Source of the DNA: an uncultured virus (IMG/VR IMGVR_UViG_3300010885_010158)
Lineage: Duplodnaviria > Heunggongvirae > Uroviricota > Caudoviricetes
DNA length: 20,000 nt
Strand: one strand, 5' to 3'
Virus record (IMG/VR): IMGVR_UViG_3300010885_010158
The position numbers and the translations under genes are program-made. Positions 2,556 through 14,637 of this stretch are shown in pieces. The notes under the pieces are model-generated. The model did not search any database. It was given only the letters and a program-made list of their open reading frames with translations, and had not been told where the DNA came from. Position 1 is the stretch's first letter. Each line of letters opens with the position of its first letter.

Positions 2556-2743
2556 CAGAAAAAATACACGAATGTTTAGAATGTGGCGCTGAAGCTACCA
2601 TAAAATATGACTATGATTCAGTCATAGAAGAACCACAATATTGTCCATTCTGTGGATCATCATATATACAAGAGGAATTAGAAGATGATGTTAACCTCTT
2701 GAAAGGTGATGGTTTCGATGATGACATGGATTTACAATGGTAA
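2552..2743 (+). CDS. Small Zn-ribbon protein with acidic tail
   Basis: CLECG and CPFCG pairs, D/E-rich C-terminus; ATGA overlap with the glutaredoxin stop gives start 2552. Confidence 0.8.
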   Translation: MTEKIHECLECGAEATIKYDYDSVIEEPQYCPFCGSSYIQEELEDDVNLLKGDGFDDDMDLQW

Positions 2744-3149
2744 GCCTTACGAATTAGGCGAGCAGACGCATAAAGAAGTATATGGTTTCGTTTACGTAAT
2801 TACTGATTTAAAAACAAATAAACAGTATGTAGGTAAGAAACTATTTTGGTCTAGCAGAACTAAACAAGTTAAAGGTAAGAAAAAGCGGCTTAAAGTAGAA
2901 TCAGATTGGAAAACCTATTTTGGTTCCAATAAACTATTACTTGAAGAACTTGAAAAGAACGGCGCAGATAATTATAAGCGAGAGATCCTTCACCTATGTG
3001 CAGGAAAGGGCGAATGTAATTATTTAGAAGCACATGAACAGTTTACTCGCGGAGTATTAACTAGCGACCAATACTACAATGATTGGATAATGGTTAAAGT
3101 TCATAGAGCTCACATAAAGGGTTTACAGCAGGCAAAAACTGTGGTATAA
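2721..3149 (+). CDS. Stand-alone GIY-YIG family nuclease
   Basis: GFVY...QYVGKK motif, WKTYFGS, conserved E and YYN; nuclease domain only. Confidence 0.85.
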   Translation: MTWIYNGKPYELGEQTHKEVYGFVYVITDLKTNKQYVGKKLFWSSRTKQVKGKKKRLKVESDWKTYFGSNKLLLEELEKNGADNYKREILHLCAGKGECNYLEAHEQFTRGVLTSDQYYNDWIMVKVHRAHIKGLQQAKTVV

Positions 3150-3157: not shown

Positions 3158-4009
3158 ATGATTATTATTGATTATTCGCAAATTTCCATCGCATCTTTCT
3201 ATGCTCAGCCTAATGCTGAACTTAATGAAGACTTTCTAAGACACATGATTCTTAATAGTATTAGAATGTATTCGCATAAGTTTAAGAAAGAATACGGTGA
3301 TATAGTTATTGCATGCGATGGTGGAAAATCTTGGCGTAAAGGTTATTTTCCTCAGTATAAGGCTCATCGTAAGAAAGCTCGTGAGGATAGCGGTTTAGAT
3401 TGGAATTTATTCTATGAATACTTGAATCAGATACGCGAAGAGATTAAAGAAAACTTTCCATATAAAGTTATTCATTTAGAACACATAGAAGCTGATGACG
3501 TTATAGGAACTCTGGTTAAAGAGACACAAGAATTTGGTAAAAATGAACCAGTAATGATCATATCATCTGATAAAGATTTTATTCAATTACAGAAATATAA
3601 AAATGTTAAACAGTTCTCACCAGTCCAGAAGAAAATGGTTACAGATACCAACCCCAACTTATACTTATTTGAGCATGTTCTTCGTGGCGATAGCGGTGAT
3701 GGTATTCCTAATGTCCTATCTGCTGATACTACCTTTGTGGATGGTTTACGACAAACTCCTCTCACTCAGAAAAAGATTGATGCGTGGTTAGAAAAAGCTG
3801 AAGATATCAAATCAGCAATGGATGATGAGACGTATAGAAATTATCAAAGGAATAAAACATTGATTGATCTTGACATGATTCCAAAGGATTATGTAGACTC
3901 AATCAAGTATTCATATGATAACCAAACACCAGCACCTCGTGCAAGAATGTTAGATTATCTTATTAAGAAGCGTTGTAAAATGTTAGTAGAATCTATAAGC
4001 GAATTTTAA
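3158..4009 (+). CDS. rnh: T4-type RNase H / 5'-3' exonuclease (FEN family)
   Basis: IIIDYSQI, SWRK..FP.YKA.R, EADDVI, SSDKDFIQL, GDSGDGIPN motifs. Confidence 0.93.
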   Translation: MIIIDYSQISIASFYAQPNAELNEDFLRHMILNSIRMYSHKFKKEYGDIVIACDGGKSWRKGYFPQYKAHRKKAREDSGLDWNLFYEYLNQIREEIKENFPYKVIHLEHIEADDVIGTLVKETQEFGKNEPVMIISSDKDFIQLQKYKNVKQFSPVQKKMVTDTNPNLYLFEHVLRGDSGDGIPNVLSADTTFVDGLRQTPLTQKKIDAWLEKAEDIKSAMDDETYRNYQRNKTLIDLDMIPKDYVDSIKYSYDNQTPAPRARMLDYLIKKRCKMLVESISEF

Positions 4010-9280: not shown

Positions 9281-9947
9281 TCTTGGTTATGAAGACTTAA
9301 TAACGGAATCGACTGTAGATGGCAGAAAATATGTCACTCCAAGTGGTATAAAATATCCGTCAATTACCACCGTTCTTGGTCATTTTACAAAGCATGAAAT
9401 TCAAGCTTGGAGAAATAGAGTTGGCGAAGAAGAAGCCAATAAAATTTCTACAAGAGCCGCCGGTAGAGGTACATCATTACACTCTATTTGTGAACGTTAC
9501 ATAGATAACGAGGTAGATTATTTCAAAGAAGCCATGCCGCATGTGCGGGGAATGTTCAATACAATCAAGCCAATCTTGGATGAGCGAATTGGAGTGGTAT
9601 ACATGCAAGAAGTGCCTCTCTACTCGAACCACCTCAGATTGGCTGGCAGAGTGGACCTCATTGCCGAGTTCGATGGAGTACCGTCAATCATCGATTTTAA
9701 AACGTCGTCGAGAATTAAAAAAGTTAAAGACATCACAGATTATTTCCAGCAAGAAGCAGCATACGCAGTAATGTACGAAGAACGAACTAATAAACCAATC
9801 GTGAATCTAGTGACAATCATGGCTGTTGAAAATAGTAACGCACCATTAATCTTCATTGAACACCGGGATAACCATGTCAATGACCTTATACATAAGATAG
9901 CCTTATATGAGAAAGAAAAAGGAATTACCTATGACACCAAAAAATAA
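9228..9947 (+). CDS. PD-(D/E)XK exonuclease (RecB/Cas4-like phage exonuclease)
   Basis: R.Y.TP.G.KYPSITTVL, RGTSLH, E..LYS...LAGRVD, IIDFKTS, QEAAYA; exact start uncertain. Confidence 0.88.
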   Translation: MKNIEELTRKNFSHQKIDLGYEDLITESTVDGRKYVTPSGIKYPSITTVLGHFTKHEIQAWRNRVGEEEANKISTRAAGRGTSLHSICERYIDNEVDYFKEAMPHVRGMFNTIKPILDERIGVVYMQEVPLYSNHLRLAGRVDLIAEFDGVPSIIDFKTSSRIKKVKDITDYFQQEAAYAVMYEERTNKPIVNLVTIMAVENSNAPLIFIEHRDNHVNDLIHKIALYEKEKGITYDTKK

Positions 9948-12197: not shown

Positions 12198-12226
12198 TGT
12201 ACAGCGAGTTATTTTTATGGTATAAT
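12198..12226 (+). promoter_or_regulatory. sigma70-like early promoter
   Basis: TGTACA-17 nt-TATAAT with TG extension; 30/32 identical to the copy at 5236. Confidence 0.8.
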
Positions 12227-12261
12227 ATATCCATATATGATGATAATTTGCGAGGTATAAT

Positions 12262-12525
12262 ATGGCTTTAGATATTGAAGAAGTAAAGAAACAGGTTGAG
12301 CAACAAGTAGAAAAAACCAATACGACTGTGCAAGATGACGGTTGGGGAAAAGCATTTGATGATATAATTCAAGGCGACTTTTCTGGTTTTTCTACATTGA
12401 TTGTTGTTTTGTTGTTTGTGCTACTACTCAAACCTATCTTGTATTTGCTACAGTATGTGGTTGCTGGTTTAATAATTTTTATGATTGTCAAATATTTTCT
12501 ATTTTATAGTGCAGCAACAGTATGA
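12262..12525 (+). CDS. Small membrane protein (2 TM)
   Basis: GAGG SD; two C-terminal hydrophobic segments. Confidence 0.75.
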   Translation: MALDIEEVKKQVEQQVEKTNTTVQDDGWGKAFDDIIQGDFSGFSTLIVVLLFVLLLKPILYLLQYVVAGLIIFMIVKYFLFYSAATV

Positions 12526-13073
12526 ACGATAAAAATTCAAGATACGTCTTAGACGTTTTATCAGATATAAATTTGCATACAACTTATGCTATTGACGAAA
12601 GTTATTTAGAAAAGGCAAATGCGAAGGCAAAATCTTATAAAGATAATAATGGCAAATCTAGAACATATGAAGAAAAACGTCTTGATATAGATTGTGAATT
12701 CGCTGATGAGATTGTTAATCACTCAGCAAAAGATGTTATTTTGCCTTCTACAGAATTGCGCAAGCATGATTTTAGAATTAAAAAACTGCCTGAGAATGTT
12801 GAATGGGCGGTAGACAATAAAGTTTTACATGATTCAGAATTTTATTTGCATATGAATAAATATACGCAATATTTAGAATCGTATAGACAAGGACAATTGC
12901 ATTACTTCGCTTTTTGGAAGTTTATGGATCGTCCAACTAAACCTTTAAAATTAGGTGATAAACCTGAAATGTTGGTGTTATCAGTCATACCAGCTGGAGA
13001 ATTGCTATTGAAAATGTGTGATCCTAAAAAAATGACTAAAGATGGTGAAAAATTCAAAGTTAAAGTAATTTAA
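12522..13073 (+). CDS. Hypothetical protein, possibly PD-(D/E)XK nuclease-like
   Basis: 183-aa ORF with ATGA overlap; HDF...VDNK spacing resembles PD..D/ExK. Confidence 0.6.
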   Translation: MNDKNSRYVLDVLSDINLHTTYAIDESYLEKANAKAKSYKDNNGKSRTYEEKRLDIDCEFADEIVNHSAKDVILPSTELRKHDFRIKKLPENVEWAVDNKVLHDSEFYLHMNKYTQYLESYRQGQLHYFAFWKFMDRPTKPLKLGDKPEMLVLSVIPAGELLLKMCDPKKMTKDGEKFKVKVI

Positions 13074-13088
13074 TATATAGATAAATCT

Positions 13089-13160
13089 ATGAACAAACAT
13101 TATATACACTCAACAAGATTATCATGCTTATGGCTTGAGGATGTGTCACGGGGTATGTAA
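13089..13160 (+). promoter_or_regulatory. Candidate attenuator leader peptide, 23 aa (MNKHYIHSTRLSCLWLEDVSRGM); not in ORF track
   Basis: Open ATG..TAA frame; last codons (CGGGGT) are complementary to the 5' arm of the downstream terminator; codons match downstream tRNA anticodons. Confidence 0.6.
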
Positions 13161-13181
13161 AAGTAAATTAACTAATACATT

Positions 13182-13217
13182 AAAACCCCGGACTTAAAAC
13201 CTCCGGGGTTTTTTTTT
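13182..13217 (+). terminator. Intrinsic terminator immediately upstream of the tRNA array
   Basis: AAAACCCCGGA/TCCGGGGTTTT 11-bp stem and a 9-T run, ending 5 nt before tRNA-Ser. Confidence 0.9.
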
Positions 13218-13222
13218 GTTTT

Positions 13223-13310
13223 GGAAGTGTGGATGAGTGGTTTAAATCAGCAGTCTTGAAAACTGCCGTGTCGAAAGGCACCGTGAGTTCGAATCTCACC
13301 GCTTCCGCCA
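13223..13310 (+). tRNA. tRNA-Ser(TGA)
   Basis: Cloverleaf; GCAGT-CT TGA AA-ACTGC; long variable arm; G73; CCA. Confidence 0.95.
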
Positions 13311-13311
13311 A

Positions 13312-13386
13312 GGGCCATTAGCTTAATGGTAAAGCAGTCGACTCATAATCGATTGAGTGATAGTTCAATTCTATCATGGCCCACCA
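13312..13386 (+). tRNA. tRNA-Ile2(CAT) (lysidine type, reads ATA)
   Basis: CT CAT AA loop; paired G1-C72 and C4/C5 in the acceptor stem as in ileX-type tRNAs; CCA. Confidence 0.8.
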
Positions 13387-13392
13387 AGTTAC

Positions 13393-13467
13393 ACCCTTGT
13401 AGGCTAAATGGTAAAGCCACTAACTTCATGAGAGTTAGGTTTCTTGGTTCGAATCCAAGCAAGGGTA
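13393..13467 (+). tRNA. Atypical tRNA-like gene with expanded anticodon loop, undetermined isotype, no CCA
   Basis: ACCCTTG/CAAGGGT acceptor, GGCT/AGCC D-stem, CTAAC/GTTAG stem with 9-nt loop TTCATGAGA, CTTGG-TTCGAAT-CCAAG T-arm. Confidence 0.75.
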
Positions 13468-13468
13468 T

Positions 13469-13553
13469 GCGAGTATGGTGAAATAGGTAGACACAAGAGA
13501 CTTAAAATCTCTCGACGCAAGTCGTGCCAGTTCGATTCTGGCTACTCGCACCA
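13469..13553 (+). tRNA. tRNA-Leu(TAA)
   Basis: AGAGA-CT TAA AA-TCTCT; long variable arm; A73; CCA. Confidence 0.95.
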
Positions 13554-13557
13554 AGAT

Positions 13558-13634
13558 ACGACTATAGCTCAGACGGATAGAGCAACAGCCTTCTAAGCTG
13601 TGGGTCGCACGTTCGAATCGTGCTAGTCGTGCCA
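13558..13634 (+). tRNA. tRNA-Arg(TCT)
   Basis: ACAGC-CT TCT AA-GCTGT; CCA. Confidence 0.95.
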
Positions 13635-13649
13635 TAAGATTTTTTTGGT

Positions 13650-13723
13650 GTGGCCATGATGTAATGGTAGCATCTCAGACTGTGATTCTGATCGCACGGG
13701 TTCAAATCCCGTTGGTCACCCCA
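13650..13723 (+). tRNA. tRNA-His(GTG)
   Basis: TCAGA-CT GTG AT-TCTGA; C73; CCA; T rather than G at position -1. Confidence 0.93.
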
Positions 13724-13735
13724 AAGAAATTTTAT

Positions 13736-13809
13736 TCCTCGATGGTGTAATGGCAGCATAGCGGTCTCCAAAACCGTTGGTTGGGGTTCGAGTCCCTATC
13801 GGGGGGCCA
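13736..13809 (+). tRNA. tRNA-Trp(CCA)
   Basis: GCGGT-CT CCA AA-ACCGT; G73; CCA. Confidence 0.93.
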
Positions 13810-13811
13810 AG

Positions 13812-13886
13812 AGTGAGATGACAGAATGGCAATGTCGCAGTCTGCAAAACTGTTGTTCGTGGGTTCGATTCCCACTCTCACTTCCA
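13812..13886 (+). tRNA. tRNA-Cys(GCA)
   Basis: GCAGT-CT GCA AA-ACTGT; U73; CCA. Confidence 0.93.
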
Positions 13887-13907: not shown

Positions 13908-13936
13908 TGTACAACGAGAAAAAAATATGGTATAAT
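13908..13936 (+). promoter_or_regulatory. sigma70-like promoter inside the tRNA array
   Basis: TGTACA-17 nt-TATAAT with TG extension; predicted start about 13942-13943. Confidence 0.8.
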
Positions 13937-13941
13937 AATAC

Positions 13942-14171
13942 CATAATCAGATTTAATTGCATTGGTTACCAAGCCAGTAGGTAATTTAGCAGTGAATAAC
14001 CAGTTGACGGACTGGCACTTCTAAGTTACACGAAAGATGGAAACGAAGTCACTTAGTGACGGATACGGTGGTCACGCTGGAACAAGTTGGCAAGTAATGT
14101 GTGCGAAAGACAAATACGTAGACGATACGTTAGGTTTTTTCAAACATCCAGTGCAATTAAATGTGATTATG
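13942..14171 (+). ncRNA. Unidentified structured RNA 1 (about 230 nt)
   Basis: 24-bp closing stem 13942-13965/14148-14171 (one mismatch, one G-U) starting at the predicted TSS; several internal hairpins. Confidence 0.65.
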
Positions 14172-14173
14172 AT

Positions 14174-14248
14174 GCTCGGTTCGTCTATCGGTTAGGACAT
14201 TGCCCTTTCACGGCAGTAAGACCAGTTCGATTCTGGTACCGAGTGCCA
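14174..14248 (+). tRNA. tRNA-Glu(TTC)
   Basis: TTGCC-CT TTC AC-GGCAG; CCA. Confidence 0.93.
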
Positions 14249-14395
14249 TTTGTTAAGTGTTATCAAAGGTATCGTTATAGGACGCTATAACTATGCGGGT
14301 CCAACTGGCGAGGAACGGATCCTAATATAACTGCTATTCGCTATGGGATGGAAGCACCAGACCCCTAAATTGGCACGATAACACTTAACAAATGG
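14246..14395 (+). ncRNA. Unidentified structured RNA 2 (about 150 nt)
   Basis: Perfect 19-bp inverted repeat CCATTTGTTAAGTGTTATC/GATAACACTTAACAAATGG enclosing 112 nt with internal hairpins; fills the Glu-Tyr spacer. Confidence 0.65.
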
Positions 14396-14477
14396 AGAAT
14401 GAGCAGCATTGGCGACTGCAGCAGACTGTAAATCTGTGTCCTCTGGAAACTTGGTTCGACTCCAAGATTCTCCACCA
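14394..14477 (+). tRNA. tRNA-Tyr(GTA)
   Basis: GCAGA-CT GTA AA-TCTGT; long variable arm; A73; CCA. Confidence 0.92.
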
Positions 14478-14481
14478 AATT

Positions 14482-14556
14482 GGTCTCATAGTATAACGGT
14501 TAGTACGGTGGCTTGTCACGCCACTAATAGGAGTTCGATTCTCCTTGGGACCGCCA
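14482..14556 (+). tRNA. tRNA-Asp(GTC)
   Basis: GTGGC-TT GTC AC-GCCAC; G73; CCA. Confidence 0.93.
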
Positions 14557-14562
14557 AGTTAT

Positions 14563-14637
14563 CGCGGGGTAGCTCAGTAGTAGAGTGCTGGACTCATAAT
14601 CCAGAGGTCGGTGGTGCGATTCCATCTCCCGCAACCA
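14563..14637 (+). tRNA. tRNA-fMet-like (CAT)
   Basis: CGCGGGG 5' end with C1:A72 mismatch; CTGGA-CT CAT AA-TCCAG; T-loop TGCGATT; CCA. Confidence 0.85.

Follow-up and report, generated by a model that had tools for sequence, protein, structure and literature searches.

What governs transcription of the eight tRNA genes that stand directly behind an intrinsic terminator in the uncultured Caudoviricetes virus of IMG/VR record IMGVR_UViG_3300010885_010158, of which a stretch of 20,000 nucleotides (nt; hereafter, the window) was analysed? Phage tRNA arrays are now viewed as a means of offsetting codon mismatch and of countering host defences that cleave tRNAs and, to our knowledge, the control of their expression has been little studied. 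Between a 183-amino-acid (aa) open reading frame (ORF) and this array lies a short upstream ORF (uORF), which an earlier note, together with the terminator behind it, took to be an attenuator that senses tRNAs. Our results suggest, tentatively, a leader-ORF attenuator: a switch between terminator and antiterminator that is coupled to translation, derives from a module shared by a family of related loci, and gates the first eight tRNAs. Four pairing regions, a flip between folds upon masking of the RNA and an outlying codon content stood up to analysis, whereas most comparative tests went against the proposal.

First, can polymerase reach these tRNAs without crossing the terminator? The terminator stem pairs 13185-13192 with 13202-13209, A-T pairs extend it to 13182/13212, and its T-run (13209-13217) ends 5 nt before tRNA-Ser at 13223. 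The terminator of L001, a closely related locus, also abuts tRNA-Ser; the claim that the terminator directly precedes tRNA-Ser and leaves too little room for a promoter was thus borne out at both loci. A sigma-70-type promoter in this gap was considered and rejected, none being seen and the space being too small. Early-type promoters of the form TGTACA-N17-TGGTATAAT occur four times in the window (5237, 5741, 12198, and 13908), compared with 0.04 expected, and the internal promoter already described downstream of the first tRNA sub-cluster (13908-13936) is genuine as one of these four. A relative's record, G002 (167.6 kb, judged 99% complete), carries 21 such sites in forward and three in reverse orientation, with none for the control, and several lie between tRNA genes. 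Early promoters before tRNA genes, as well as lysidine-type CAU tRNAs, are described for T4-like phages (PMC1524935). No TGTACA-N17-TGGTATAAT promoter lies between 12226 and 13223, and no + strand terminator-like site was found from the promoter at 12198 to 13180. Given the lack of a promoter between 12226 and 13223, the transcripts of the first eight tRNAs must cross the terminator.

Second, the leader RNA can fold in two mutually exclusive ways, as the earlier note had described. Its coordinates for the leader ORF and the pairing elements were all reproduced (CGGGGT-ATGTA at 13149-13159, TACAT at 13176-13180, and ACCCCG at 13185-13190), and both folds are present at similar predicted strength, with the antiterminator (2:3) larger than noted, at 13145-13193. 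The antiterminator occupies the entire 5' arm of the terminator and holds the uORF stop codon inside its own 5' strand. Its predicted energy is about -18.5 kcal/mol (segment 13134-13201; shuffle mean -9.8, standard deviation 2.7; 0.45% of 2000 as low), compared with -14.4 kcal/mol for the terminator hairpin alone and -16.7 to -17.6 kcal/mol with flanks; the antiterminator is therefore not the weaker of the two, as had been supposed. The untranslated full-length RNA is predicted to form the hairpin across the uORF (1:2) plus the terminator (z-score -3.57; 0 of 200 shuffles fold as well). When a ribosome-like block masked the 5' end of this RNA from the ATG onward, masks of 0-18 nt retained that form, masks of 24-30 and 42-54 nt (five of 15 masks) produced the antiterminator, a 36-nt mask gave the terminator form again, and masks of at least 60 nt yielded the terminator; switching at five or more of the 15 masks was seen in 1 of 400 shuffles. 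The modelled states match the behaviour of a trp-type attenuator. Nascent RNA lacking the 3' arm favours the antiterminator by 8.6 kcal/mol with no mask needed, and hence transcripts that start at the 12198 promoter may read through by default when they are not translated.

Third, the codons of the uORF are set apart from those of the surrounding genes. The earlier counts of leader codons matching the array were reproduced: with all tRNAs considered, 16 of 23 codons match, and 14 of 17 do when counting starts at codon 4. Against a background of 5,395 codons from 33 + strand ORFs, the nine-codon set of the first sub-cluster accounts for 11 of the 23 uORF codons (background 13.0%, binomial 5.5e-5; 1 of 241 short ORFs as rich). 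Allowing wobble, the count is again 11 of 23 (15.2%, 2.3e-4; three of 241 short ORFs), and for the codon set of all 12 tRNAs it is 16 of 23 (38.2%, 2.3e-3; five of 241), while the other two frames of the uORF hold five and two matches. The matches concentrate in codons 4-15 (from 13098), where 10 of 12 are cognate to the first eight tRNAs; no other 12-codon window among 39,930 in six frames reaches 10, although in the relatives' DNA (70,213 bases) the maximum is likewise 10, in two windows. These codons coincide with the positions where masking predicts that a stall leads to antitermination. All seven canonical tRNA classes of the first sub-cluster have cognate codons in the leader, as they do in L001 (nine matching codons compared with 11 in the window), and all seven fall inside 12 codons in five of the 39,930 windows, three of them in the uORF and the five confined to two places in the window. 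The cluster is a genuine outlier. Dinucleotide shuffles of the uORF average 5.2 matches versus the 11 observed (P 0.005-0.017), and local composition thus explains about half of the enrichment.

Where did this arrangement come from? The 183-aa ORF led to seven loci in viral contigs (65-98% identity), and sequence patterns led to two more, L021 and L142, the latter in G002. Among viral contigs, a start-region pattern returned nine stretches (adding L021 and an incomplete L015), an ORF-core pattern returned nine (adding L142), and a last pattern returned 22, eight known and 14 unrelated. A scan of the viral contigs for the terminator string gave no match, and the pattern scan found the 3' end of the window type only in the contig of L001. 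A metagenome scan with a loose start-region pattern gave at least 117 stretches, and no family member was among the 30 short ORFs listed. Six relatives, all freshwater T4-like phages (L002, L021, L142, L003, L005, which equals L006, and L007), carry, at the homologous site heading a tRNA array, an ORF of 41-42 codons. Their module comprises a near-invariant start region with no Shine-Dalgarno sequence, the ORF, a small hairpin, and a terminator whose stem differs between two groups with its pairing kept (three pairs changed on both sides across the six relatives). The tRNA array is the constant neighbour of the module, whereas the gene upstream varies. In the window it is the 183-aa gene; in two relatives, further genes stand between that gene and the module, namely an ORF of 117 aa in L002 (3552-3905; no Pfam match at E up to 0.001) and genes matching AhpC/TSA (8.1e-20) and the CMD family (1.9e-10) in L003 (3671-4743). 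The relatives' arrays are larger (19-28 tRNAs found) and, in all six full-length relatives, one to three early-type promoters and a tRNA-Gln lie between terminator and tRNA-Ser.

The full-length ORF of 41-42 codons looks translated. Its six gaps in the alignment are each 3 or 6 columns long, compared with 1, 2, 3, or 5 columns after the stop, and its pairwise differences favour the third codon position (4/7/11, 3/3/7, and 3/1/6). Synonymous changes are frequent, with six synonymous versus four non-synonymous codon changes between L003 and L005. Family searches with the 183-aa ORF and the leader peptides gave no Pfam match and a best PHROG E-value of 0.048, and peptide homologues in the protein collection formed only two clusters, both labelled "hypothetical protein." L001, whose neighbouring protein is 98% identical, has a 24-codon ORF and a terminator placed as in the window. 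Aligned with the relatives, both the window and L001 have gaps (57, 3, and 7 columns; about 19 codons lost) and a 3' end in another frame, from which it follows that the uORF is a shortened derivative and not a design of its own. The attenuator proposal implied a uORF conserved in relatives, and in this it did not hold: the window copy is truncated and frame-shifted from the conserved ORF of 41-42 codons. The uORF is nevertheless present and open in the window, in L001, and in a DNA variant from run X3, and its ATG, its open frame, and a stop within region 2 all outlasted the deletion and, in L001, an in-frame indel of 3 nt. In the same three sequences the terminator stem is unbroken, all differences falling within the loop or T-run, and L001 retains the 1:2 hairpin with altered pairing partners.

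The predicted folds extend across this family. The same three helices recur, with the stop codon always within or beside them; the stop codon starts 0-5 nt past the G-run of region 2 in eight of eight members, in three different stop contexts. In nascent RNA from the ATG to the terminator loop, the 5' arm of the terminator is paired upstream in seven of eight members and, with 60 nt of extra upstream sequence, in all eight (shuffle P 0.003-0.06). Duplexes of regions 2 and 3 average -19.2 kcal/mol for native partners and -15.3 kcal/mol for cross-group chimeras, and those of L005 and L007 are 3-5 kcal/mol better with their own partner than when swapped, an advantage that stems in part from an A:T to G:C change involving the second base of the stop codon. 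Masking moved the minimum free energy (MFE) fold of the full-length RNA to the antiterminator at 9 of 24 masks in L002, 1 of 15 in L001, and 1 of 24 in L142, beside the 5 of 15 in the window. In these predictions, every family member can form the antiterminator; selection keeping it is not demonstrable from eight sequences.

How the uORF might be translated is suggested by what precedes it. The stop of the 183-aa ORF lies 15 nt upstream of the uORF ATG, and a late-promoter-like octamer stands before that ATG (Table 1). The T4 late consensus, TATAAATA, occupies -13 to -6 relative to the start site (PMC1524935). The octamer matches this consensus at seven of eight positions in the window, eight of eight in L001, and seven of eight in the other relatives, at a constant distance to the ATG. 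Exact octamers number zero in the window, and 22 forward and one reverse in G002. The octamer gives a lead only: it could possibly yield a leaderless uORF transcript. The motif TATATATAAWT was rejected as a general promoter motif, as its single occurrence in the 167.6 kb of G002 is at the module itself. In unrelated viral contigs (L020, L023, L154, L160, L162, L164, and L169-L171), longer ORFs are likewise directly preceded by the module's start-region motif (TATATAA, two bases, CT, ATG), with no Shine-Dalgarno sequence, a recurrence that hints at a wider arrangement of promoter plus leaderless start. Contigs of three RNA libraries (X16, X17, and X18) span parts of 12261-13042 and several tRNAs, and none spans 13043-13222.

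Taken as a switch, the segment would work as follows. The module would have been shortened in this lineage until it adjoined tRNA-Ser, and since it abuts this gene, crossing the terminator is the sole route to the first eight tRNAs. As polymerase exits the 5' arm, the nascent RNA would favour the antiterminator. A ribosome arriving at the last codons or the stop would unwind region 2, allowing the terminator to form; one lagging or stalled in codons ~5-14 would leave region 2 free, and polymerase would read into the tRNAs, which RNase P would then free. Translation might start on a leaderless late transcript from the octamer, or ribosomes that have finished the 183-aa gene might re-initiate. 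As stall signal, the codon cluster points to scarcity of the tRNAs that the array itself encodes, but slow translation as such might also serve.

Several results weigh against such a switch. Adjacent genes carry a Shine-Dalgarno sequence, and none precedes the uORF. Near-matches to the late octamer in the window are at about chance level (69 compared with 58.6 expected). The 5' part of the uORF has diverged between the window and L001 more than any other segment (78% identity versus 85-100% elsewhere). The conserved peptide core of the relatives (RPE..TS..WS.G) is absent from the peptides of the window and L001; conservation of the longer peptides in the relatives suggests a peptide function. 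With promoters after the terminator in all six full-length relatives, attenuation would not be required there for tRNA expression. Another relative, L004, has no module, and a tRNA directly follows the 183-aa gene, an arrangement indicating that tRNAs are co-transcribed with upstream genes in this clade. The folding evidence has weak points as well. All energies, masked or not, are equilibrium predictions and not kinetics. Masking produced the antiterminator as MFE fold at 0 of 24 masks in each of L021, L003, L005, and L007. With the 9-nt arm alone, complementarity in group 2 does not exceed shuffles (P 0.23-0.40), and RNAalifold on the nascent segment finds just seven pairs at -1.37 kcal/mol. 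In an alignment fitted to the model, 75.6% of cells pair (shuffles: 72.6 ± 1.2, with 7 of 500 reaching this value), and column-wise covariation of the antiterminator does not exceed that of shuffles (two pairs vs. 1.4, score 0.128 vs. 0.125, 220 of 500 shuffles as high). The stronger upstream pairing of the terminator 5' arm in six loci of the family (-1.0 to -11.9 kcal/mol), which speaks for the switch, was gauged against a small and partly orthologous control set, seven other terminators from the same DNA (-0.6 to -2.4 kcal/mol).

A serious rival, which we nevertheless consider somewhat unlikely, is that the uORF is a pseudogene remnant of a gene for 41-42 aa, decaying beside an ordinary leaky terminator. 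The hairpin would then end the upstream operon, remodelling of the array would have placed a promoter-less tRNA block behind it, and constitutive leak-through from the promoter at 12198 would serve the tRNAs, with the codon match and the alternative fold reduced to inherited sequence plus coincidence. The gaps and altered 3' frame relative to the relatives fit such decay, as do the rapid divergence of the uORF 5' part, the tRNA of L004 lying directly behind the 183-aa gene, and the missing formal covariation. Part of the codon cluster (TCA, TGG/TGC, and TTA) is inherited from a conserved TCATGGTCATTA stretch of the relatives' long ORF, the enrichment arose largely through loss of a poorly matching middle part, and local composition accounts for about half of it. 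An open 22-codon frame is unremarkable (6465 of 20,000 shuffles are stop-free), and scanning many windows yields some 1-in-1000 coincidences. Against this reading, neither the window nor L001 nor the X3 variant has a change in the terminator stem, and start, open frame, and region 2 stop were kept through the deletion and the L001 indel. The strength and switching of the antiterminator are rare among shuffles, and none of the other 39,930 windows equals the codon cluster.

Within the reading as a translation-coupled switch, the tRNA-specific version put forward in the earlier note is a narrower case that we regard as improbable. Here, the leader codons would be tuned to the anticodons of the array, and depletion of those tRNAs (for example, by host anticodon nucleases) would stall the ribosome and release a tRNA rescue cassette. 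The leader codons for seven of seven canonical tRNAs, also in L001, argue for it, as do the 10 of 12 matching codons at the stall positions predicted by masking and the rarity of seven classes within 12 codons. The expectation that leader codons track each phage's own anticodon set was not borne out at significance in the relatives: four of four ORFs tested, against sets of 19-27 tRNAs counted, match no better than background (28 of 41 codons vs. 0.58, 35 of 42 vs. 0.73, 29 of 42 vs. 0.62, and 37 of 42 vs. 0.80; P 0.08-0.20). In addition, L001 is short of two of the 11 matches, the matching codons arose partly via deletion and frame change, and the version needs a limiting phage tRNA while host isoacceptors are also absent. 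A broader form, in which the array has its own supply sensor, seems to us improbable to the same degree: a late leaderless ORF of cognate codons would convert tRNA shortage, whether from demand or from host anticodon nucleases, into replacement tRNAs, and the longer module would be ancestral, a general translation-rate sensor feeding late transcription into arrays driven by early promoters.

Less probable still is a fixed, tuned leak, in which the upstream complement weakens the terminator constantly and independently of translation, setting a steady ratio of short transcript to read-through. The preference of unmasked nascent RNA for the antiterminator and the missing Shine-Dalgarno sequence are what such a leak would produce, but a conserved, apparently translated ORF ends within region 2 in eight of eight members, and the 1:2 pairing would have no role. 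Finally, a small stable non-coding RNA from late-like promoter to terminator (~130 nt here, 190 nt in the relatives), whose paired 5' and 3' ends would be analogous to the stable RNAs of the T4 tRNA region, is very improbable: it would fit the pairing, in six of six full-length relatives, of sequence past the stop with the GAAC that opens the ORF and with a variable stretch, the exchange of ATTTGT:ACAAAT in L002 for TTTCT:AGAAA or GGAAAA in L021/L142 with a G:C to C:G swap, and the two further strongly structured spacers in the same array, but in-frame indels and third-position bias indicate coding, the GAAC:GTTC helix is missing in the window and L001, and no Rfam family reaches threshold.

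How does the proposed switch compare with known systems? Leader-peptide attenuators of the trp/his/leu/thr type terminate when untranslated or fully translated and read through when a ribosome sits early in the leader. The window shares with them a short ORF, 1:2, 2:3, and 3:4 regions, a terminator before the regulated genes, and the predicted outcomes. It differs in its mixed cluster of codons for seven tRNAs in place of a tandem run of a single codon, in its uORF with no Shine-Dalgarno sequence, in a nascent RNA that favours 2:3 even untranslated, and in that the genes it would regulate are phage tRNAs instead of biosynthetic enzymes. Membership of an Rfam leader family was rejected, as all scores lie under the gathering threshold (His_leader 32 vs. 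49, Thr_leader 17.8 vs. 55, and rnk_pseudo 30 vs. 55 bits); the His_leader alignment depends on the terminator, and relatives reach at most 28.2 bits in the leader search. Resistance leaders of the erm and ABCF type respond to drug-bound ribosomes, often via a specific nascent peptide. Slow or stalled translation of a short ORF as signal and terminator bypass as output would be common to both, whereas the trigger there is a drug-bound ribosome and the window copy lacks the relatives' peptide core. T-box leaders, which recognise uncharged tRNA by direct binding and work with no ORF, likewise tie a terminator/antiterminator choice to tRNA status; the Rfam search gave no T-box match. Closest is the module of the relatives, homologous in start region, 3' end, terminator, and place at the array head, from which the window and L001 differ by the loss of ~19 codons, another 3' frame, no GAAC:GTTC helix, and neither promoters nor tRNA-Gln between terminator and tRNA-Ser. 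In literature listings and abstracts, no account was found of a leader-ORF attenuator that precedes a tRNA operon or a phage tRNA array.

Table 1. Positions of the leader, its promoters, and the tRNA sub-clusters in the window.
Feature	Position	Strand	Remarks
Early-type promoter TGTACA-N17-TGGTATAAT	12198..12226	+	Nearest upstream promoter; transcripts cross uORF and terminator before the tRNAs
Upstream 183-aa ORF	12522..13073	+	No family match; anchor for finding relatives
Late-promoter-like octamer TATAGATA	13076..13083	+	7/8 match to T4 late consensus; -13 to -6 from the A of the ATG
uORF	13089..13160	+	ATG at 13089, 23 sense codons, TAA 13158-13160; no Shine-Dalgarno sequence
Hairpin 1:2 across uORF	13100..13160	+	5' strand 13100-13111, 3' strand 13150-13160; predicted fold
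Antiterminator 2:3	13145..13193	+	GTC, CGGGGT, and ATGTA pair with TACAT, ACCCCG, and GAC; predicted fold
Intrinsic terminator	13182..13222	+	8-11 bp stem, 9-nt loop, nine T, then GTTTT
First tRNA sub-cluster	13223..13886	+	Eight tRNAs; no promoter of its own
Internal early-type promoter TGTACA-N17-TATAAT	13908..13936	+	Heads second tRNA sub-cluster
Second tRNA sub-cluster	14174..14637	+	Glu-ttc, Tyr-gta, Asp-gtc, Met-cat; independent of terminator

The array itself has features of its own. ARAGORN called 12 tRNAs, the first being tRNA-Ser(tga) at 13223, and 12 of 12 lie above the Rfam tRNA threshold. The first sub-cluster reads Ser-tga, CAT (Met or Ile2), an aberrant tRNA, Leu-taa, Arg-tct, His-gtg, Trp-cca, and Cys-gca; for the CAT tRNA at 13312, the label "Ile2" is an assumption of the earlier note. 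The aberrant tRNA (13393-13467; 3874-3949 in L001) has an anticodon stem of 6 bp (or a loop of 9 nt), and its anticodon differs by one base between the two sequences, ARAGORN giving atg ("His") for the window and acg (Arg) for L001; DNA contigs of X3 and RNA-library contigs of X18 covering it have no listed change in the anticodon. Two spacers, 13937-14173 and 14249-14393, are strongly structured, with a long terminal helix (z -6.97 and -5.27; 0 of 200 shuffles), and neither has an Rfam match at E up to 1. They are candidates for stable RNAs processed together with the tRNAs. L001 lacks the first of them, its promoter leading directly into tRNA-Glu, and L004 has a similarly closed spacer at ~3820-3950. 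Elsewhere, the relative L014 has a tRNA with anticodon cta (9750-9824; ARAGORN label Pyl) that could read amber stops, and tRNA-Ile(tat) calls of 95 nt, ~20 nt over the usual length, occur in three relatives, L010 (9127-9221), L012 (16352-16446), and L014 (8028-8122); these genes may hold an intron or a long insertion.

The flanking genes encode NrdA, NrdB, an RNase H-type exonuclease, a ClpP-like protease, and a 2OG-Fe(II) oxygenase. With its counterpart in Methylophilales phage Melnitz the exonuclease shares 49.5% identity, and with those of T4-like phages of Pelagibacter, Synechococcus, and Sinorhizobium 44-47%; the public runs containing the stretch are labelled as freshwater or lake metagenomes. 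Among named phage records, no close relative was found: megablast matches are only tRNA-sized (39 records, each covering at most 4% of the query), and tblastn of the 183-aa ORF gave no match. Between nrdB and the exonuclease, a 147-aa ORF (2706-3149) matches phrog_447 ("NAD synthetase", 2.8e-44) and, more weakly, homing endonucleases, and may be a mobile endonuclease.

If the segment is the switch tentatively proposed here, it would explain why a terminator is kept right before eight intact tRNA genes. It would also provide feedback from translation capacity to tRNA synthesis and constitute a ready-made sensor of translation stress. If it is not, the analysis still records a conserved module of small ORF and terminator that marks the heads of tRNA arrays in this clade of lake phages.

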